A stretch of DNA of 64,000 bases from an uncultured Lachnospiraceae bacterium (GTDB lineage: Bacteria; Bacillota; Clostridia; Lachnospirales; Lachnospiraceae): NCBI GenBank assembly GCA_948964755.1, contig CAREEU010000007.1, positions 35,417-99,416 on the forward strand, in the 5' to 3' direction. Positions 2,466-53,376 of the stretch are shown here, in pieces. The notes under the pieces were generated by a model. It ran no database searches. It saw nothing but the letters and a program-made list of their open reading frames with translations, and had not been told where the DNA came from. Position numbers and translations under genes: made by a program. Each line of letters opens with the position of its first letter. Positions within the stretch are counted from its first letter, which is position 1.

Positions 2466-3959
2466 TTAAATCCTCCCATACCGCTTTGCAATACCCAAAA
2501 TCTCTTCCTGCAATTCCTTTGACAAATCCTCTTCCGTCAAACGCCACCTCCAGTTCGTCCCCACTGTAGAAGGCGTATTAATCCGACATGTATTATCATA
2601 CCCAAGATAATCCTGCATTGGAATAATACAAGTCTTTGCATTACTTCGCATCACCAAAGCAATAAACGCCTTATACAACAACTCCTTCGGCGTATAAAGA
2701 TCACAAAGATACTCCCTTGCCATCTGCTGCTCTGCCTTTGAAATCGACTCAAACCACCCGCAGATTGTCTCATTATCATGAGTCCCTGTATAAGCCACAC
2801 TATTTTCCATATAATTATGAGGCAGATAGTCATTTGCCGATCCAGAATCCCTAGAATCAAAAGCAAACTCCAACACCTTCATTCCCGGAAATCCACTGTC
2901 TGCAACCAACTGCCGCACCGAATCCGTAACATACCCCAAATCCTCTGCGATTACCTCATGCCATCCAAGCCGCTGCTCTACACAGCGAAACAGCTCAATC
3001 CCAGGACCTTTTTCCCAATGCCCAATCTTCGCCGATTCCGCACCATAAGGAATCGAATAATACTCATCAAATCCCCGAAAATGATCAATCCGCACAACAT
3101 CATACAGCCGAAAACAATAAGCCAGTCTTGAAACCCACCATTCATATCCAGTCTGCTTATGATACTCCCAGCGATACAAAGGATTCCCCCAAAGCTGCCC
3201 GTCTGCCGAAAACCCATCCGGCGGACATCCTGCTACCGCACAAGGTACATTCTGTTCATCTAACTGGAACAATTCTGGATGTGCCCAAGTATCCGCACTG
3301 TCCATTGCCACATAGATAGGAATATCCCCAATCAAGGCAATCCCCTTCTGATTGGCATACGCCTTTAACCGCCTCCACTGTTCAAAAAACTTAAACTGCA
3401 TATACTGCTGAAATTCTATCTCAAAATATAACTCCCTGCGATAATAATCCATCGCAAATCCCCAACGCAGCCGAATATCCTCTGCCCACTGCGTCCATGC
3501 TACGCCCTCAAACCGATCCTTAACCGCCATAAACAACGCATAGTCCGAAAGCCACCACTTATTTTCCTCTACAAACCGCAGATAATCCGCATTTTCACTA
3601 ACCTTGCTGCGTTCATACGCCTTTCGAAGCAAAGGATACCGATTTTGATAGAGTTTCTCATAATCAATATCTTCTAACTGACTTCCAAAATCCGCCTCTT
3701 CACACTCCTCCTCTGTCAAAACCCCTTCCTCTATCAGTGCCTCCAAACTAATAAAATAAGGATTTCCTGCAAAAGTAGAAAATGACTGATAAGGAGAATC
3801 TCCATAACTGGTAGGTCCAAGCGGCAAAATCTGCCAATAAGTCTGTCCGGCTTCTTTCAGCCAGTCTATAAAATCATATGCACTCTTTGAAAAACAGCCA
3901 ATCCCATAGCGGGAAGGCAAACTGGTAATGGGAAGTAAAATACCTGCTGAACGTTTCAT
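2466..3959 (-). CDS. malQ: 4-alpha-glucanotransferase (amylomaltase, GH77)
   Basis: 497 aa. N-terminus ILLPITSLPSRYGIGCF..AGQTYWQILPLGPT is a classic MalQ signature. Confidence 0.9.
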   Translation of the reverse strand: MKRSAGILLPITSLPSRYGIGCFSKSAYDFIDWLKEAGQTYWQILPLGPTSYGDSPYQSFSTFAGNPYFISLEALIEEGVLTEEECEEADFGSQLEDIDYEKLYQNRYPLLRKAYERSKVSENADYLRFVEENKWWLSDYALFMAVKDRFEGVAWTQWAEDIRLRWGFAMDYYRRELYFEIEFQQYMQFKFFEQWRRLKAYANQKGIALIGDIPIYVAMDSADTWAHPELFQLDEQNVPCAVAGCPPDGFSADGQLWGNPLYRWEYHKQTGYEWWVSRLAYCFRLYDVVRIDHFRGFDEYYSIPYGAESAKIGHWEKGPGIELFRCVEQRLGWHEVIAEDLGYVTDSVRQLVADSGFPGMKVLEFAFDSRDSGSANDYLPHNYMENSVAYTGTHDNETICGWFESISKAEQQMAREYLCDLYTPKELLYKAFIALVMRSNAKTCIIPMQDYLGYDNTCRINTPSTVGTNWRWRLTEEDLSKELQEEILGIAKRYGRI

Positions 3960-8531: not shown

Positions 8532-8560
8532 AATAGAGCTGAACCAGACACCGGACGTAT

Positions 8561-8692
8561 GAAGCAGAGAGGGTTTCTTTGCTGGGGCCGTTTGCACTAA
8601 GGCTTCCTCGCAGCGGACACATAAGGCACGAAAATACCGTGCCTAAGTGCCGGCGGGAAGCAATACCCCTGCAAAGAAACCCTCTCTGCTCC
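8561..8692 (+). repeat. element-3 repeat copy 1 (conserved ~90-nt core flanked by a copy-specific inverted stem)
   Basis: Core tggggccgtttgcactaaggcttcctcgcagcggacacataaggcacgaaaataccgtgcctaagtgccggcgggaagcaatacccctgca. Flanks gcagagagggtttctttgc / gcaaagaaaccctctctgc. Confidence 0.8.
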
Positions 8693-8836
8693 ATACTGTA
8701 TATTCCTAAATTCAAGTGTTCAAATTCGTCCTTCTGCATTTTCCCTATTGGGAACACAAACCAAATTTCCACGCTCTTAAAGTCATAGTAAAATGAAAGA
8801 AATTAAGTCATAAAACAAAAACGGAGAAAAGAAAAT

Positions 8837-9289
8837 ATGAAAAAGTACACATATATCACTTTAAGGCAAAAGCCACAGATAAAAGATACAGCAGCCGAAT
8901 GGTTCCATTGTAAATGGGGCGTTCCCAAAGAAGCTTATCTGGAATGTATGAACGCTTATCTTAACAACGAAACGGAATATGGCTGGTATCTTTGCTTAGA
9001 TGAGAAAAAAATAATAGGAGGTCTTGGTGTAATTGAAAATGACTTCCACAATAGAAAAGATCTTGTTCCTAATGTCTGTGCAGTCTATACAGAAAAAGAC
9101 TACCGATGTAGGGGGATAGCCGGACACTTGCTTAATATGGTGGTAGAGGATTTGAAATCCAAGTCCATAACGCCTATCTATTTACTTACTGATCATACCA
9201 GCTTCTATGAGAAATATGGCTGGGAATTCTTATATATGGTTCAAGGAGATGGAGAACCCCATATGTCAAGAATGTATATTCACAAATAA
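8837..9289 (+). CDS. GNAT family N-acetyltransferase
   Basis: 150 aa with GNAT fold motifs (ILGGLGV..CRGIAGHLL). Bracketed by inverted element-3 copies. Confidence 0.8.
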   Translation: MKKYTYITLRQKPQIKDTAAEWFHCKWGVPKEAYLECMNAYLNNETEYGWYLCLDEKKIIGGLGVIENDFHNRKDLVPNVCAVYTEKDYRCRGIAGHLLNMVVEDLKSKSITPIYLLTDHTSFYEKYGWEFLYMVQGDGEPHMSRMYIHK

Positions 9290-9318
9290 TTTCTAGCTTT
9301 CCGGTCGGAATACACAGC

Positions 9319-9456
9319 AGGCAGGAGAGAGGGAATCTTTGCAGGGGTATTGCTTCCCGCCGGCACTTAGGTGCTGTTCTTTAGCACCTTATGTGTCCGC
9401 TGCGAAGAAGCCTTAGTGCAAACGGCCCCAGCAAAGAATCCCTCTCTCCTGCCTGC
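9319..9456 (-). repeat. element-3 repeat copy 2 (inverted relative to copy 1)
   Basis: Reverse complement of the same core. Flanks gcaggcaggagagagggaatctttgc / gcaaagaatccctctctcctgcctgc. Confidence 0.8.
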
Positions 9457-9485
9457 GTCCTCCCCCCTCCTATTTATGTCCTTTC

Positions 9486-11390: not shown

Positions 11391-11512
11391 AATCAAATCG
11401 GATATTCGCAGTCCGCTTTGCTACTTGCTCATAACCTCATCAAGGAAGTCCCAACCCACCGCTTTCGCCTTGGCGGCTTAGAAGCGGGGAACTTCCTTGA
11501 TAAGATTAAAAG
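11391..11512 (+). repeat. SHE-2 copy (single GC-hairpin module)
   Basis: aatcaaatcggatattcgcagtccgctttgctacttgctcataacctcat caaggaagtccc..gggaacttccttg ataagattaaaag. Overlaps the stop codon of the 11506 gene. Confidence 0.75.
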
Positions 11513-21549: not shown

Positions 21550-21808
21550 GGACGCCAGAGAGTATTAAAAGCACGCTGTTCCGCTCTCCAGAAAACAGAA
21601 ACTCTAAGACTTCTGAATTTCAATGCATCCAACCGGACGGACCGGCACGCAATTCGCCTCTGCAGGAGGCTAAGCACGTGCCTTTTTCGGGCACAAGTGC
21701 CCGAAAATCCTACAGAATCGACAGAAGTCTAAGAGTTTCTAGTTTTCCTCCGAAGTCACAGCGTACTTTTAATACTCTCTGGCTATATAATTCCACAATT
21801 TACGTTTC
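21550..21808 (-). repeat. LPE-1 copy B (B-type core, alpha flank), head-to-head with copy C
   Basis: Core variant cggcacgcaattcgcctctgcaggaggctaagcacgtgcctttttcgggcacaagtgcccgaaaa. Ends ggacgccagag..ctctggct plus the flank tatataattccacaatttacgtttc. Confidence 0.85.
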
Positions 21809-22245
21809 TTTTCTTTCACGGTTGTATGGTTCTTCAATTTGCGTTTTTTCTCCTTGGTGGTTGTATGATTCTGCAATTTACGTTTCTTCCCCTTTATGGT
21901 TATATGACTCTGCAATTTATGTTTCTCCTTAGCGGTTGTATGATTCTGCAATTTACGTTTCTTCCCCTTTATGGTTATATGACTCTGCAATTTATGTTTC
22001 TCCTTAGCGGTTGTATGATTCTGCAATTTACATTTCTTCTCTTTCATGGTTGTATAATTCTGCAATTTATGTTTCTTCTTGGCGGTTGTATGATTCCGCA
22101 ATTTACGTTTCTTCTCTTTCATGGTTGTATAATTCTGCAATTTATGTTTCTTCCCCTTTGTGATTATATGACTCTGCAATTTATATTTCTTCTTGGCGGT
22201 TGTATGATTCCGCAATTTACGTTTCTTTTTCTTTGCAGATGTATA
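21795..22245. repeat. tandem array, about 12 units of 36-39 bp (AATTTAYGTTTCTTnnnCTTnnnGGTTGTATGATTCTGC), derived from the LPE-1 alpha flank
   Basis: Units alternate between two subtypes and are near-identical to one another. The first unit is continuous with the flank of copy B. Confidence 0.8.
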
Positions 22246-22365: not shown

Positions 22366-22634
22366 ACATAAATTGCGGGAATACCAGCCAGAGGGAGAAA
22401 GTAAAATGGTATCGCAGTGACTTCGGAGGAAAGTTAGAAGGTCTTAGACTTCTGTCGATTTTGTAGGATTTTCGGGCACTTGTGCCCGAAAAAGGCACGT
22501 GTTTAGCCTCCTGCAGAGGCGAATTGCGTGCCGGTCCGTCCGGTTGGATACACCGAAATTCAGAAGTCTTAGACCTTCTTACTTTCCGTAGAGCGGAACT
22601 GCGATACCATTTTACTTTCTCCCTCTGGCGTCCT
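22366..22634 (+). repeat. LPE-1 copy C (B-type core, alpha flank)
   Basis: acataaattgcgggaataccagccagag..ctctggcgtcc. Variable stem gggagaaagtaaaatggtatcgcag pairs with its own 3' arm. Confidence 0.85.
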
Positions 22635-29349: not shown

Positions 29350-31113
29350 ATGAGAAAACATACGCTAGAAACCCGCTGGACACAGCAAATTACAGAAACA
29401 AATGCCTGGCAGGAATACCCTCGCCCTACTATGGTTCGCTCCTCTTATATAAACCTAAATGGTTACTGGGATTACAAAATCAGCAGACGTCACACCTTTC
29501 CCTCCGCCTATAGCGGAAAAATCCTAGTTCCGTTCTCTCCCGAATCCAAACTATCCGGTGTACAGCGTCAGTTAAAACCAAATGAATATCTCTGGTACCA
29601 CAGAACCCTTACCCCTTTATCATTTTCCAAACAAGAACGCCTCTATCTGCACTTTGGTGCAGTAGACCAATCCTGCACCATTTACCTCAACCGCCGGAAA
29701 GTCGGTTCCCATCAGGGAGGCTATCTTCCTTTTTCGATTGACATTACGGAAGCGATGCGGCACGCTTCACCCAAAAAGCCTCTAGACTTATTCGTATGTG
29801 TAACCGATCCCAGTGACACCTCCTATCACAGCCGGGGCAAACAAAAGCTCCGCAACGGCGGAATGTTTTATACTGCACAAAGCGGAATCTGGCAGACCGT
29901 CTGGATGGAACTTGTACCGGAAAATTTTATCCGCTATGTCAAATTCACTCCTGACTACGATAAAAAAGAAGTAAAAGTAAAGATTGCTACAGAAAAAACC
30001 TGTCCTGCTGTATTACATCTAAAATTAGAATCCGGCGATCTCTCTTATTCTTTTACAAGCAACCAAAGCTTTCGGATTCCGATTCGGGAATTTCACGCAT
30101 GGAGTCCAGAGCATCCCTATCTGTACCAAGTAAAAATCACTACAAAGACAGACTGTATCTCCAGTTACTTTGCCCTAAGAAAATGTGAAATTCAAACCGA
30201 TTCAAACGGAATCCGAAAAATCTTTCTTAATAATCGCCCCTATCCGCAGATTGGCATCCTCGATCAGGGATACTGGCCAGACGGACTCTATACCCCGCCC
30301 TGTGAAGAAGCGATTTTATTTGATCTTTTGGCAATAAAAAAATTGGGATTTAATATGATCCGCAAACATGTAAAAATCGAATCGGAACGCTGGTACTATC
30401 ACTGTGATCGGCTTGGTATTCTAGTCTGGCAGGATATGGTAAATGGCGGCTCACGCTACCACCGCTGGTTTGTTACCTACTTTGCCACTCTCTTTAACTG
30501 CCTGAATATCCGAATATTTGATCGTCCTCATGCTTTATTTTCACGCAGACAAAAAGAAAGCCGAACCGAATGGACCAAAGAAGTCGTATCCACTGTCCGC
30601 ACCTTATATCCTCATCCCTGCATTGTATGCTGGGTTCCATTTAACGAAGGATGGGGACAGTTTCGTGCACTTTCAGCAGCAGAATTGATTCGCAGTCTAG
30701 ACAAAGAGCGGCTGATCGATCACGCCAGCGGCTGGTTTGATCAGGGAGGCGGCGATATAAAAAGTATTCACTACTATTTCTTCTCCCTGATTCTAAAACC
30801 GGAACGGCGTGCACTCGCTCTGACCGAATTCGGCGGCTACACTTGGCATGTAAAAAAACACAGCTATTCCTCCAAAAAATTTGGCTATCGAACTTTTTAC
30901 AGCAAAAATTCCCTGTCAAAAGGCTATGCCAAATTATTAGAAGACCTGATTTTTCCTGCATTTCAAAACGGACTTTCCGCCTCCGTCTATACCCAGCTTT
31001 CCGATGTAGAAGAGGAACTAAACGGCATCTTTACCTATGACAGAAAAATTCTGAAATTAGACAAAAAAACGGTTACCGAATGGAACCAAAAAATAAAAAA
31101 TCTAATCGAGTAG
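29350..31113 (+). CDS. glycoside hydrolase family 2 protein (beta-glucuronidase/beta-galactosidase-like)
   Basis: 587 aa. GH2 sugar-binding domain (..HQGGYLPFSIDIT..) and TIM-barrel region with WVPFNEGWG. Confidence 0.75.
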   Translation: MRKHTLETRWTQQITETNAWQEYPRPTMVRSSYINLNGYWDYKISRRHTFPSAYSGKILVPFSPESKLSGVQRQLKPNEYLWYHRTLTPLSFSKQERLYLHFGAVDQSCTIYLNRRKVGSHQGGYLPFSIDITEAMRHASPKKPLDLFVCVTDPSDTSYHSRGKQKLRNGGMFYTAQSGIWQTVWMELVPENFIRYVKFTPDYDKKEVKVKIATEKTCPAVLHLKLESGDLSYSFTSNQSFRIPIREFHAWSPEHPYLYQVKITTKTDCISSYFALRKCEIQTDSNGIRKIFLNNRPYPQIGILDQGYWPDGLYTPPCEEAILFDLLAIKKLGFNMIRKHVKIESERWYYHCDRLGILVWQDMVNGGSRYHRWFVTYFATLFNCLNIRIFDRPHALFSRRQKESRTEWTKEVVSTVRTLYPHPCIVCWVPFNEGWGQFRALSAAELIRSLDKERLIDHASGWFDQGGGDIKSIHYYFFSLILKPERRALALTEFGGYTWHVKKHSYSSKKFGYRTFYSKNSLSKGYAKLLEDLIFPAFQNGLSASVYTQLSDVEEELNGIFTYDRKILKLDKKTVTEWNQKIKNLIE

Positions 31114-31255
31114 GAAAGGTTACTTTCCCTACTCGCTGTCTCAGGCGTCCGTCAGCTCCGCTGACCTATTTCATTAAAACATTCATGTGCATAAAAAGGG
31201 ACTGCTGCAAAATAATAAATTCCTATCCTATTTTGCAGCAGCCCCTTTTCCACTA
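31107..31255 (+). repeat. module-5 repeat (gagtaggg hairpin + gtcagc..gctgac hairpin) fused to a bidirectional terminator between convergent genes
   Basis: atcgagtaggaaaggttactttccctactcgctg..gtcagctccgctgac.. then gggactgctgcaaaata..tattttgcagcagcccc flanked by A and T tracts. The GH2 stop codon lies inside the first hairpin. Confidence 0.65.
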
Positions 31256-33287: not shown

Positions 33288-33546
33288 GGACGCCAGAGTG
33301 TTTTAGGGAGACGTGTTCCGCTCTCCAGAAAGCAGAAGTTCTAAGACTTCTGAATTTCCGTGCATCCCACCGGACGGACCGGCACGCAATTCGCCTCTGC
33401 AGGAGGCTAAACACGTGCCTTTTTCGGGCACAAGTGCCCGAAAATCCTACAGAATCGACAGAAGTCTAAGAACTTCTGCTTTCCTCCGAAGTCACAGCGT
33501 CTCCCTAAAGCACTCTGGCTGTATTGTCTCACAATTTACGTTTCCT
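33288..33546 (-). repeat. LPE-1 copy D (B-type core, alpha flank), head-to-head with copy E
   Basis: ggacgccagagtgttttagggagacgtg..core..cagcgtctccctaaagcactctggct gtattgtctcacaatttacgtttc. Confidence 0.85.
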
Positions 33547-33674
33547 TTCTCGATCCTCTATGAATACAGGAATCAACTTTTATGTTTTCTTTTCTCGATC
33601 CTCTATGGATACATAAATCAATTTCCATGTTTTCCTTTTTCGAACCTCTATGGATACAGGAATCAAATAAAAAC
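33547..33674. repeat. tandem array, about 3 units of ~46 bp, reiterating the alpha-flank-like sequence between LPE-1 copies D and E
   Basis: ctttctcgatcctctatgaatacaggaatcaacttttatgttttc repeated with variation. Confidence 0.7.
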
Positions 33675-33943
33675 TTATCGGCAGGAAAAAACAGCCAGAG
33701 TGGGGAAAAGATTCCTTGCCACTGTGACTTCGGAAAAAGTTAGAAAGTCTTATGCTTTTGTCGATCCACTAGGATTTTTTGCCATTCTCGAATGGCAAAA
33801 AAAGGGGTGTGTTTAGCCCGCTGTACGGGCGAATTGCACCCCGGTCCGTCCGGCTGGATGTATCTACATTCAAAAGCATTAGACTTTCTTACTTTTTGGA
33901 GAGCGGAACAGTGGCAAGGAATCTTTTCCCCACTCTAGCGTCC
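33675..33943 (+). repeat. LPE-1 copy E (A-type core, beta flank)
   Basis: tatcggcaggaaaaaacagccagag tggggaaaagattccttgccactg..core..cagtggcaaggaatcttttcccca ctctagcgtcc. Confidence 0.85.
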
Positions 33944-37653: not shown

Positions 37654-37706
37654 AATCAAAGGAAATTCGGAATCCGCTCCGCTACTTCCTTGATAGGTTA
37701 AAAATA
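37654..37706 (+). repeat. SHE-2 minimal copy
   Basis: aatcaaaggaaattcggaatccgctccgctacttccttgataggttaaaaa. Confidence 0.65.
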
Positions 37707-37862: not shown

Positions 37863-37950
37863 TATACCATCGAGTAGGAAAATTTCCTCTCCTTACTCGC
37901 TGCACCAAGCGTCCATCAGCTCCGCTAACATCGTTCCCTTGGACGCCCGC
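37863..37950 (+). repeat. module-5 repeat copy
   Basis: atcgagtaggaaaatttcctctccttactcgctg..catcagctccgctaac..cgttcccttg..catacataaaaaaa. Same order and orientation as the copies at 31107 and 49320. Confidence 0.65.
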
Positions 37951-37954
37951 ATAC

Positions 37955-38100
37955 ATAAAAAAATGCAGACACGCAAAAAGCATATCTGCACCGTTCTTCC
38001 GCAAATGATGTCCCTACGTTGGCATTATCCAAATCAGGTTTTAAGGGTAAAAGCCTCACATGCTTACTCTCAGCCTATTCTAATAAGCTCCCCATATATT
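37955..38100 (-). ncRNA. TPP riboswitch (THI element) with terminator-type expression platform
   Basis: Minus-strand sequence ggggagc..aggctgagag..acccttaaaacctgatttggataatgccaacgtagggaca matches the TPP aptamer consensus (CUGAGA, ACCUGAUCUGGAUAAUGCCAGCGUAGGGAA). It is followed by the hairpin gcagatatgc/gcgtgtctgc and a T7 run. Confidence 0.75.
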
Positions 38101-38159
38101 TCTATTATAACCTCTTTTTAAAAAAACACAATCCCCTTTTTCCAACAAAATCCTTTAAC

Positions 38160-38334: not shown

Positions 38335-38603
38335 TATCGGCAGGATAAATCAGCCAGAACAAAGAAGCAATTTCTTGCTGACGTGACTTCGGAGAAAAGT
38401 TAGAAAGTCTTACGCTTTTGTCGATCCACTAGGATTTTTTGCCATTCCCGAATGGCAAAAAAAGGGGTGTGTTTAGCCCGCTGCACGGGCGAATTGCACC
38501 CCGGTCCGTCCGGCTGGATGCATCAAAATTCAAAAGCGTTAGACTTTCTTACTTTTCGGAGAGCGGAACGTCAGCAAGAAATTGCTTCTTTGTTCTAGCG
38601 TCC
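38335..38603 (+). repeat. LPE-1 copy F (A-type core, beta flank)
   Basis: tatcggcaggataaatcagccagaac aaagaagcaatttcttgctgacg..core..cgtcagcaagaaattgcttctttg ttctagcgtcc. Confidence 0.85.
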
Positions 38604-48892: not shown

Positions 48893-49158
48893 GGACGCCA
48901 GAGTATGGCATTACAGTACTGTTCCGCTCTACAGAAAGTAAGAAGCTCTAAGACTTCTGAATTTAGATGCATCCAACCGGACGGACCGGGGTGCAATTCG
49001 CCCGTGCTGCGGGCTAAACACACCCCTTTTTTTGCCATTCAAGAATGGCAAAAAATCCTAATGAATCGACAGAAGTCTAAAAGCTTCTAACTTTCCTCCG
49101 AAGTCACAGTACTGCAATGCCATACTCTGGCTGTCTTTTTCCACAATATAGGTATTCT
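48893..49158 (-). repeat. LPE-1 copy H (A-type core, alpha-like flank)
   Basis: ggacgccagag tatggcattacagtactg..core (tttttttgccattcaagaatggcaaaaaa)..cagtactgcaatgccata ctctggctg tctttttccacaatataggtattc. Confidence 0.85.
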
Positions 49159-49290: not shown

Positions 49291-49319
49291 TTTGTTATGT
49301 TCTTTCTATTTTTATAATC

Positions 49320-49445
49320 GAGTAGGGAAGGCTGCCTCCTCTACTCGCCGTGCTAAATGTCTGTCAGTTCTGCTGACATCGTTCCTTGAGATATCTGTGT
49401 ACATAAAAAAATTCCCTGTAAACATTTCGTCTACAGAGAACGCCC
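49320..49445 (+). repeat. module-5 repeat copy (contains the tRNA-Leu terminator on its minus strand)
   Basis: atcgagtagggaaggctgcctcctctactcgcc..gtcagttctgctgac..cgttccttg..tacataaaaaaa..ctgtaaacatttcgtctacag. Confidence 0.65.
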
Positions 49446-49455
49446 CTGCCAAGAG

Positions 49456-49538
49456 TGCCGCAGGCCGGACTTGAACCGGCACGAGGTCGCCCCCGCTAGA
49501 TTTTGAGTCTAGTGCGTCTGCCATTCCGCCACTGCGGC
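49456..49538 (-). tRNA. tRNA-Leu (anticodon CAA), class II with long variable arm
   Basis: Minus strand GCCGCAGTGGCGGAATGGCAGACGCACTAGACTCAAAATCTAGCGGGGGCGACCTCGTGCCGGTTCAAGTCCGGCCTGCGGCA. 7-bp acceptor, anticodon loop cuCAAaa, T-arm GGTTCAAGTCC. CCA is not encoded. Confidence 0.8.
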
Positions 49539-53109: not shown

Positions 53110-53376
53110 TATCGCCAGAAAGAACCAGCTGGAGTTTGGAAGCCCTTTCTCTATGCAGTGACTTCGGAGAAAAGTTAGAAAGTCTTATGCCTCTGTCGAT
53201 CTCCTAGGATTTTTGCCATCTTCTGATGGCAAAAAAGGGGTGTGTTTAGCCCGCTGCACGGGCGAATTGCACCCCGGTCCGTCCGGTTGGATATATTTTC
53301 ATTCAGAGGCATTAGACTTTCTTACTTTTCGGAGAGCGGAACAGCATAGAGAAAGGGCTTCCAAACTCCAGCGTCC
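53110..53376 (+). repeat. LPE-1 copy I (A-type core with gccatc/gatggc hairpin variant, beta-like flank)
   Basis: atcgccagaaagaaccagctggag tttggaagccctttctctatgcag..core (tttgccatcttctgatggcaaaa)..ctgcatagagaaagggcttccaaa ctccagcgtcc. Confidence 0.85.

Follow-up and report, generated by a model that had tools for sequence, protein, structure and literature searches.

Repeats of the ERIC, Correia, RUP and BOX types have reported effects on the termination, processing and stability of transcripts. In Pseudomonas, REPINs are doublets of REP sequences that are mobilised by RAYT (PMC3116915), and the non-coding RNA (ncRNA) arrays of UG27 reverse transcriptases (RTs), which occur in gut Bacillota including a Lachnospiraceae species, consist of ~150-nt hairpins that are conserved in structure and diverse in sequence (bioRxiv 10.64898/2026.09.22.753630). 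Here we followed up an earlier note on 64,000 nucleotides of an uncultured Lachnospiraceae bacterium (assembly GCA_948964755.1, contig CAREEU010000007.1, positions 35,417 to 99,416; the whole of this stretch is called the window below), in which a repeat termed element-3 had been seen as inverted pairs around single small genes. We found that element-3 is an undescribed, lineage-restricted family of non-coding, palindromic intergenic hairpins, present in a few mouse-gut Lachnospiraceae. Our preferred reading, to which we give a probability of roughly 0.5, is that of a REP/BIME-like proliferating palindromic repeat that would form a polar hairpin where transcripts have their 3′ ends.

The window holds four copies of element-3 (c1 to c4), which form two inverted pairs, one around a GNAT acetyltransferase gene (pair 1) and one around an 88-aa open reading frame (ORF88; pair 2):

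8553–8722, + strand: c1, on the stop side of a LacI-family gene; GGACG 8553–8557, stem arms 8557–8579 and 8674–8696, core 8580–8673, CTGT 8696–8699, tail to ~8722
8766–8794, + strand: promoter-like site TTTCCA-17-TAAAAT within pair 1, upstream of the GNAT gene; a consensus match only
8837–9289, + strand: GNAT N-acetyltransferase gene, 150 aa, with four GNAT Pfam matches
9292–9460, − strand: c2, on the stop side of ybaK; in + strand order, tail 9292–9313, ACAG 9314–9317, arms 9317–9339 and 9434–9456, core 9340–9433, CGTCC 9456–9460
63162–63330, + strand: c3, upstream of ruvA (− strand), its tail abutting the ORF88 stop codon; GGACG 63162–63166, arms 63166–63188 and 63283–63305, core 63189–63282, CTGT 63305–63308, then the tail
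63340–63606, − strand: ORF88, enclosed by pair 2; a conserved Lachnospiraceae protein of ~85 aa
63929–64000, − strand: c4, ending at the window edge; complete in L079 (2905–3055)

The core common to c1 and c2, which had been put at ~90 nt, measures 94 nt, and the coordinates and the description in that note were correct; GNAT is indeed the sole gene between the two copies. The flanks said to be self-complementary and copy-specific over 19–26 bp were found as a 23-bp stem followed by seven closing core pairs. Each of the two copies is self-complementary (31-nt arms, 94%), the inverted-repeat arms that they form with one another (8553–8706 and 9307–9460, 154 nt) are 86% complementary, and their apical hairpins differ by three compensated base pairs. 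A core with paired flanks was thus rightly recognised, but the real unit is longer, with GGACG on its 5′ side and CTGT plus a ~20-nt tail on its 3′ side. BLAST of a copy against the window returned two further copies, c3 (99% over the 94-nt core, 63189–63282) and c4 (63949–64000), and a 33-nt core probe gave three matches where none was expected. The recurrence that the earlier note had described around an 88-aa ORF at 63174–64000 is therefore real, with the addition that a repeat of another family (63809–63930) also lies inside. The fourth copy carries TGACG in place of GGACG and, in L079, begins ~90 nt past the stop codon of a GerA gene, in sense.

When species-representative genomes were scanned for the core motif, 46 loci with ~60 copies came from the mouse-gut metagenome-assembled genome (MAG) MGBC128194, of an uncultured Lachnospiraceae. 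A second Lachnospiraceae MAG held three copies on two loci, and the matches in other phyla covered the 19–22-nt probe only. One relative, L077, carries a single diverged copy in the same frame with a core ~79% identical, so that the family spans species and diverges between them. Presence and absence of element-3 differ at orthologous junctions of related species, which indicates that the repeat proliferates. Rfam contained no family for element-3 when the whole window was searched at gathering thresholds and, at E up to 10, offered plant miRNA-precursor models only, far below threshold (27.6 versus 137 bits). BLAST against phage and plasmid collections gave nothing like it, scans of IMG/VR and JGI metagenomes with a degenerate pattern of two blocks, which recovers all known copies, found nothing, and our literature search on such repeats in Lachnospiraceae found nothing relevant. 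Several metagenomic contigs of this species stop inside element-3 (L063, L064, L066, L067, L082–L084); the repeat breaks MAG assemblies and is consequently undercounted in them.

Aligned over 50 full copies (alignment A1), the unit is ~170 nt long and runs (cc)GGACG, 23-bp stem, 94-nt core, second arm, CTGT and a ~20-nt tail. The core, TGCTGGGG...CCCCTGCA, is conserved and asymmetric, and its internal loops, among them the 15-nt loop CCGTTTGCACTAAGG facing CAATA, are invariant and likewise asymmetric. The tail after CTGT is conserved as nTATTyCAnCCGGAAC. Although the element is almost fully palindromic, its conserved ends (GGACG on one side, CTGT plus tail on the other) are not inverted repeats of each other. 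Pairing is retained in 97.6% of cells over the whole structure and in 96% within the stems, compared with 38–49% in slid alignment controls. At 29 of 51 pairs both sides have changed, with 444 compensated cells in total, and none of 500 shuffles reached these values; the apical 7-bp hairpin of the core covaries as well. G.U accounts for just 6 of 2547 cells. Every copy folds into a ~140-nt hairpin of −79 to −92 kcal/mol (z −8 to −12.5), equally well from either strand.

Such covariation, very strong in two helices around invariant unpaired nucleotides, together with folding scores of this size, would also be expected of a structured RNA, whether cis-acting or small, and whether protein-binding, ribozyme-like or a substrate of RNase III; the conserved internal loops would then be its functional site, and the variable stems would need only to pair. 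The mismatches in the outer stem are asymmetric between the strands: on the sense strand A.C (28 cells) exceeds G.T (4–6 cells; p = 2e-4), so that wobble-type mismatches prevail on the − strand, as expected if the − strand were the RNA. However, an RNA read from the − strand would, at 20 of 23 solitary copies, run antisense to the genes beside it, and G.U, nearly absent on the sense strand, reaches only ~2.5% of cells on the other, where RNA families usually tolerate more. The equal folding of both strands, the lack of a promoter-like site adjoining the copies and the noise-level Rfam matches to plant miRNA hairpins speak against an RNA too, and we judge this explanation quite unlikely. As a separate observation, the mismatch skew also runs opposite to the C-to-T pressure expected on the sense strand.

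Nucleotide diversity is 0.45 in the stem arms and 0.41 at the variable apical pairs, compared with 0.02 in the rest of the core, a ~20-fold difference between stem and core. Stem and core distances are uncorrelated (r = 0.004), and where two copies have the same core, ~9 of 22 arm positions differ. Among the 14 most similar copy pairs, 39 of the 46 differing stem positions had changed on both arms and were Watson–Crick in both copies, from which it follows that compensation is nearly simultaneous with change. Such two-arm change points to arm-to-arm copying in DNA, unlike the slow second-site selection that would act on an RNA. Template switching at quasi-palindromes, which equalises the arms of inverted repeats, is an established mechanism (PMC7202029, PMC8604942). 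We infer that the stem arms may be kept Watson–Crick by copying one from the other, either by template switching of this kind or by hairpin-templated repair, and that the core would be held constant by selection, by gene conversion between copies or by both. If so, the family would serve as a natural archive of template switching at quasi-palindromes in a gut anaerobe.

Other sources of stem diversity were considered and rejected. A ~20-fold hypermutation of the stems in situ did not agree with the strains, which differ at 13 of 2460 nt and show no change in the 92 stem nt of c1 and c2. Adenine-only diversification like that of a diversity-generating retroelement (DGR) was dismissed on inspection of the per-pair counts, as changes are of all types and mirrored on both arms. 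Nor do the stems look like captured terminators of the host, since they have a common consensus and sit inside the conserved GGACG/CTGT frame. Many copies are adjoined by partial tandem duplications of the 5′ end (GGACG and the start of the arm) or of the tail, or by unrelated short tandem repeats (5′ side: L016, L037, L041, L049, L058; 3′ side: L004, L012, L022, L025, L026, L055; in the window: 63086–63160), which suggests replication slippage at a stable hairpin.

The placement of solitary copies is polar. Where a neighbour could be scored, 20 of 23 lie sense to the upstream gene (p = 5e-4), 16 of these solitary copies sit between two co-directional genes, and ~16 copies start 12–39 nt past the stop codon of the upstream gene. 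The copies of pair 1 individually follow the same placement: the GGACG of c1 starts 21 nt past the LacI-family stop codon (8531), sense to that gene, and c2 begins 25 nt past the ybaK stop (9486), sense to ybaK and antisense to GNAT. The fourth copy, at ~90 nt, is in sense too. The polarity extends to the element itself: at least five T in the 8 nt after the stem occur in 35 of 50 copies in sense and in 0 of 50 in antisense, and the basal 8 bp of the stem are 63% GC. A sense copy could accordingly be transcribed into a stem that is GC-rich at its base and runs into a U-rich tail, that is, a polar 3′-end hairpin, which might serve as a terminator, as a block to 3′ exonucleases or as both. Apart from c1 and c2, the LacI/ybaK junction of the window contains nothing terminator-like; in L077 a plain bidirectional terminator takes their place. 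A consensus terminator scan of the window made no call on the element-3 copies, and canonical terminators are found after 2 of 18 element-bearing genes and 29 of 229 others, which is no difference and carries no information either way.

Neighbouring copies always stand in the order + then −, with their 3′ tails inward (17 of 17 pairs, 15 in the MAGs and two in the window). The paired inverted arrangement pointed out in the earlier note is therefore real and non-random, but its interpretation as a mobile gene cassette did not survive. When we tabulated what other pairs enclose, as that note had proposed, 10 of the 15 MAG pairs turned out to have 64–440 nt inside, with no ORF of at least 40 aa. 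One pair, 2.4 kb apart, holds two adjacent ORFs (246 and 178 aa) that probably represent the housekeeping genes scpA and scpB, and one encloses a 286-aa metallophosphoesterase. Another (L030, ~2280–2590, + strand) encloses a 102-aa Cys/Gly-rich ORF with CGGGC repeats, hydrophobic stretches and no Pfam match, which may be a small secreted or membrane peptide. Genes around the pairs are convergent in two cases, co-directional in seven and divergent in three. In tight pairs the partner cores differ at 0, 0, 0, 1, 3 and 5 positions against a family mean of 6.9, and the partner arms are as unlike as those of random copies (9–13 of 22 positions). The pairs of the window are ordinary dimers, or neighbouring copies, with a gene in between. 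Facing each other tail to tail, the two copies would stop incoming transcription from both sides and so insulate the interior; the bidirectional insulator or terminator that had been suggested as an option is plausible, as it fits the orientation data and the sense-only U-rich tail.

Inverted 94-nt cores that are nearly identical and lie 90–700 nt apart could alternatively act as recombination sites that flip the interior and thereby cause phase variation, and homogenised partner cores are what recombination between copies would leave. We consider an invertible segment most improbable. All contigs covering GNAT (16) and ORF88 (24) showed a single orientation, although consensus assemblies could hide a minority one; GNAT appears, from a consensus match, to have its own promoter inside the pair; no recombinase gene recurs nearby; and most copies are solitary.

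The earlier note had also raised the possibility of a cassette bounded by miniature inverted-repeat transposable elements (MITEs), in which c1 and c2 would have brought GNAT into the LacI/ybaK junction, and c3 and c4 ORF88 into its own. Some observations are in its favour. An empty LacI/ybaK junction, which the note had asked to be looked for, exists in L077 (5468–5533), where the two genes lie 64 nt apart around the plain terminator; GNAT homologues ~80% identical occur in many unrelated contexts, which implies that the gene moves; and the arms of c1 and c2, with differences at 5 of 22 positions where the mean is 10, resemble each other somewhat more closely than the average. Yet L077 is distant (ybaK 75% identical), and in two more relatives this junction is occupied by different genes without repeats, namely a Dam-like methyltransferase and a 235-aa ORF in L075 (5447–7291) and a 5′-nucleotidase/LysM protein in L073 (5468–7526). 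Homologues of GNAT with 79–86% identity, checked in three unrelated contexts, had no element-3 repeats, and the c1–GNAT–c2 unit occurs in one genomic context across 16 contigs, with no second location found. No target-site duplication (TSD) was detected at any fixed offset (all boundary offsets, k = 3–8, 48 copies); the best case, 12 of 48 at k = 3, came from conserved internal motifs, and nothing appeared at k ≥ 5.

As to pair 2, ORF88 has 314 homologues, and the one in L085 (68% identical) occupies the same GerA–ORF–ruvA position in a locus free of element-3; ORF88 therefore predates the repeats there, and a cassette is largely refuted for this pair. Synteny in repeat-free relatives, which the earlier note had named for GNAT as evidence against a cassette, was found for ORF88; GNAT itself is not syntenic in relatives. 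Most MAG pairs, as described above, are empty, and one spans the putative scpA/scpB. Each repeat of pair 1 follows the general rule for solitary copies, just past a stop codon and in sense, so that no cassette is needed to explain c1 and c2. The comparisons indicate that relatives differ at this junction whether or not repeats are present and that GNAT arrived there, with nothing to tie its arrival to the repeats. We regard the cassette model as largely refuted and very unlikely for either pair, and a transposon-cargo label in the annotation of GNAT as unwarranted. A foreign composition of GNAT was tested and rejected, since its GC (0.37) and third-position GC (GC3; 0.37) fall inside the range seen in neighbouring genes. 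More generally, element-3 copies are liable to be mistaken for boundaries of mobile elements.

Element-3 could also be a selfish, non-autonomous mobile hairpin of the REPIN or MITE kind without any host function. An enzyme whose gene lies elsewhere, such as an HUH/Y1 single-strand transposase specific for the folded core, would move it in trans, with the dimer perhaps as the replicative unit; orientation bias and dimers would then result from the way it inserts (at strand-specific, single-stranded targets and beside a resident tail). Presence and absence at orthologous junctions and the many copies per genome fit this explanation, as do the invariant asymmetric core loops, which are expected of a protein recognition site, and the strictly Watson–Crick pairing with almost no G.U. 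Dimers occur in every gene context, with near-identical partner cores, and REPIN doublets provide a precedent (PMC3116915). On the other hand, there is no TSD at any fixed offset, and GGACG and CTGT, at the two ends, do not form mutual inverted repeats. No transposase-like neighbour recurred among 317 clustered ORFs from ~400 kb around the copies, in which ABC ATPases, response regulators and the like did recur. The uncorrelated diversities of core (0.02) and arms (0.45) misfit a simple burst from a master copy, and the tight placement 12–39 nt past stop codons needs further explanation. We see a purely selfish hairpin as possible, but less likely than our preferred reading. Precise boundaries between filled and empty sites were not found at HisS/DUF445 or LacI/ybaK, as the flanks are too diverged between species to align.

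Several points also weigh against our preferred reading of a proliferating repeat with a role at transcript 3′ ends. The role in termination or RNA stabilisation is predicted solely from the geometry of the element. Canonical intrinsic terminators have a far shorter hairpin, and the U-tract of element-3 (UGUnUAUU) is imperfect. Some copies in sense sit within operons, where a strong terminator would be polar, such as the uxuA–element–uxuB arrangement of L015 (checked by eye). For the seven co-directional and three divergent contexts, there is no evident transcript that the second partner would stop, so that the dimers may have arisen from a mechanism and not through selection. The excess of A.C over G.T mismatches is the reverse of what selection on a sense RNA should produce. 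The bias in gene orientation could be a by-product of a replication-strand bias. Finally, around the copies we found no transposase, no TSD and no exact boundary between an empty and a filled site. What is unusual and worth following is that an invariant core goes together with stems that are hypervariable and yet complementary. Should the copies set transcript 3′ ends, as we infer, they would amount to a large lineage-specific layer of gene insulation. With regard to strand, the − strand carries 48 of the 52 window ORFs that reach 110 aa, and the coding strands of the related MAG are visibly G/T-rich; the window probably represents a single replichore arm.

Element-3 is not the only interspersed repeat in the window, which holds three further families:

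2203–2437, 21554–21783, 22387–22629, 33292–33519, 33694–33939, 38353–38599, 42991–43234, 48897–49131 and 53128–53372: second hairpin family, ~245 nt
1855–2019, 11393–11511, 40182–40346 and 63809–63930 (also 37654–37691): third interspersed repeat family (GGATATTCGCAATCYGCTT...), the copy at 63809–63930 lying inside pair 2, beside c4
31103–31197, 37867–37961 and 49315–49409: fourth repeat family, ~95 nt (TAATCGAGTAGG...)

The ~245-nt family is presumably the LPE-1 of the earlier note. A handful of copies, compared by inspection, show the design of element-3, with conserved GCCAGAG...CTCTGGC ends, ~20-nt copy-specific arms that are 94–100% complementary, and a conserved core. Its inverted pair 21554/22387 has 36–39-nt tandem repeats in between (21780–22234), and the pair 33292/33694 has three 45-nt repeats (33541–33675). 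Element-3 and this LPE-1-type family might together form a new class of DNA hairpins that move or propagate themselves, with a core recognised by an enzyme on folded single strands, stems re-templated arm from arm at transposition or replication, and the tail-to-tail dimer as product or unit. Re-templated arms would explain stems that are saturated yet complementary and unlinked to the core lineage; we nonetheless think such a class unlikely. In this commensal lineage there appear to be several families of long hairpins that join a near-invariant core to hypervariable complementary stems. Two copies of the fourth family lie close to a thiamine pyrophosphate (TPP) riboswitch (37994–38104) and a tRNA (49456–49538), respectively. 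Upstream of ruvA (− strand), a LexA-box-like sequence, CGAACATATATACG, is conserved between species (window ~63000–63030; L085 ~3360–3385), and c3 is inserted just distal to it.

How, then, does element-3 compare with the described systems? Unlike a typical MITE, it showed no fixed-length TSD, and no transposase-like family recurred among the 317 neighbouring ORFs. The UG27 ncRNAs form tandem arrays beside an RT operon in prophages, with a variable central hairpin and the motifs AUCN7UANAG and UUYA, whereas element-3 is dispersed and conserved at its centre; the AUCN7UANAG motif was present in 0 of 50 copies on either strand, and a UG27 array was rejected. Integron attC sites are likewise folded single-strand recombination sites that preserve their pairing and extrahelical bases under a variable sequence, and they too accompany single small genes. 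However, attC sites follow every cassette in one and the same orientation, stand in arrays beside intI and conserve their outer boxes rather than their centre, whereas element-3 is inverted around a gene, dispersed, and in most pairs encloses nothing; no integrase was seen among the ORFs neighbouring element-3 copies. With intrinsic terminators the repeat shares a GC-rich base followed by a T-rich tract in one orientation only, a position shortly past stop codons, and the fact that its copies at LacI/ybaK replace the plain terminator of a relative, the activity of the copies themselves being predicted. It differs in its ~140-nt hairpin with large internal loops, compared with a stem of 5–14 bp and a loop of 3–8 nt, and in its interrupted U-tract.

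Closer likenesses are found among the interspersed palindromes. The ERIC/IRU, Correia (NEMIS) and RUP/BOX repeats are imperfect palindromes of ~120–180 nt with compensatory stem changes, transcribed along with neighbouring genes. Their ends are defined terminal inverted repeats, and Correia and RUP also have TSDs; element-3 shows neither. They offer no counterpart to saturated stems beside a near-invariant core. REP/BIME and REPIN sequences are non-coding intergenic palindromes, often just past genes, that occur as inverted doublets and singletons and proliferate within lineages (PMC3116915); they are also thought to shape mRNA 3′ ends, and doublets of fixed relative orientation have their match in the tail-to-tail pairs of element-3. 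Against this, element-3 is 4–6 times longer (~170 nt versus ~20–40 nt for a REP palindrome), conserves its core and varies its stems where REPs conserve the stem and vary the loop, lacks a GTAG-type 5′ motif, and has doublet spacers of 64–440 nt that can hold genes. No RAYT-like gene was found near any copy and no HUH-like neighbour recurs, whereas REP and REPIN sequences accompany a RAYT gene that the repeats flank. In the way it works, element-3 is most like the REP/BIME/REPIN and ERIC/Correia-type repeats, while being a member of none of these families.

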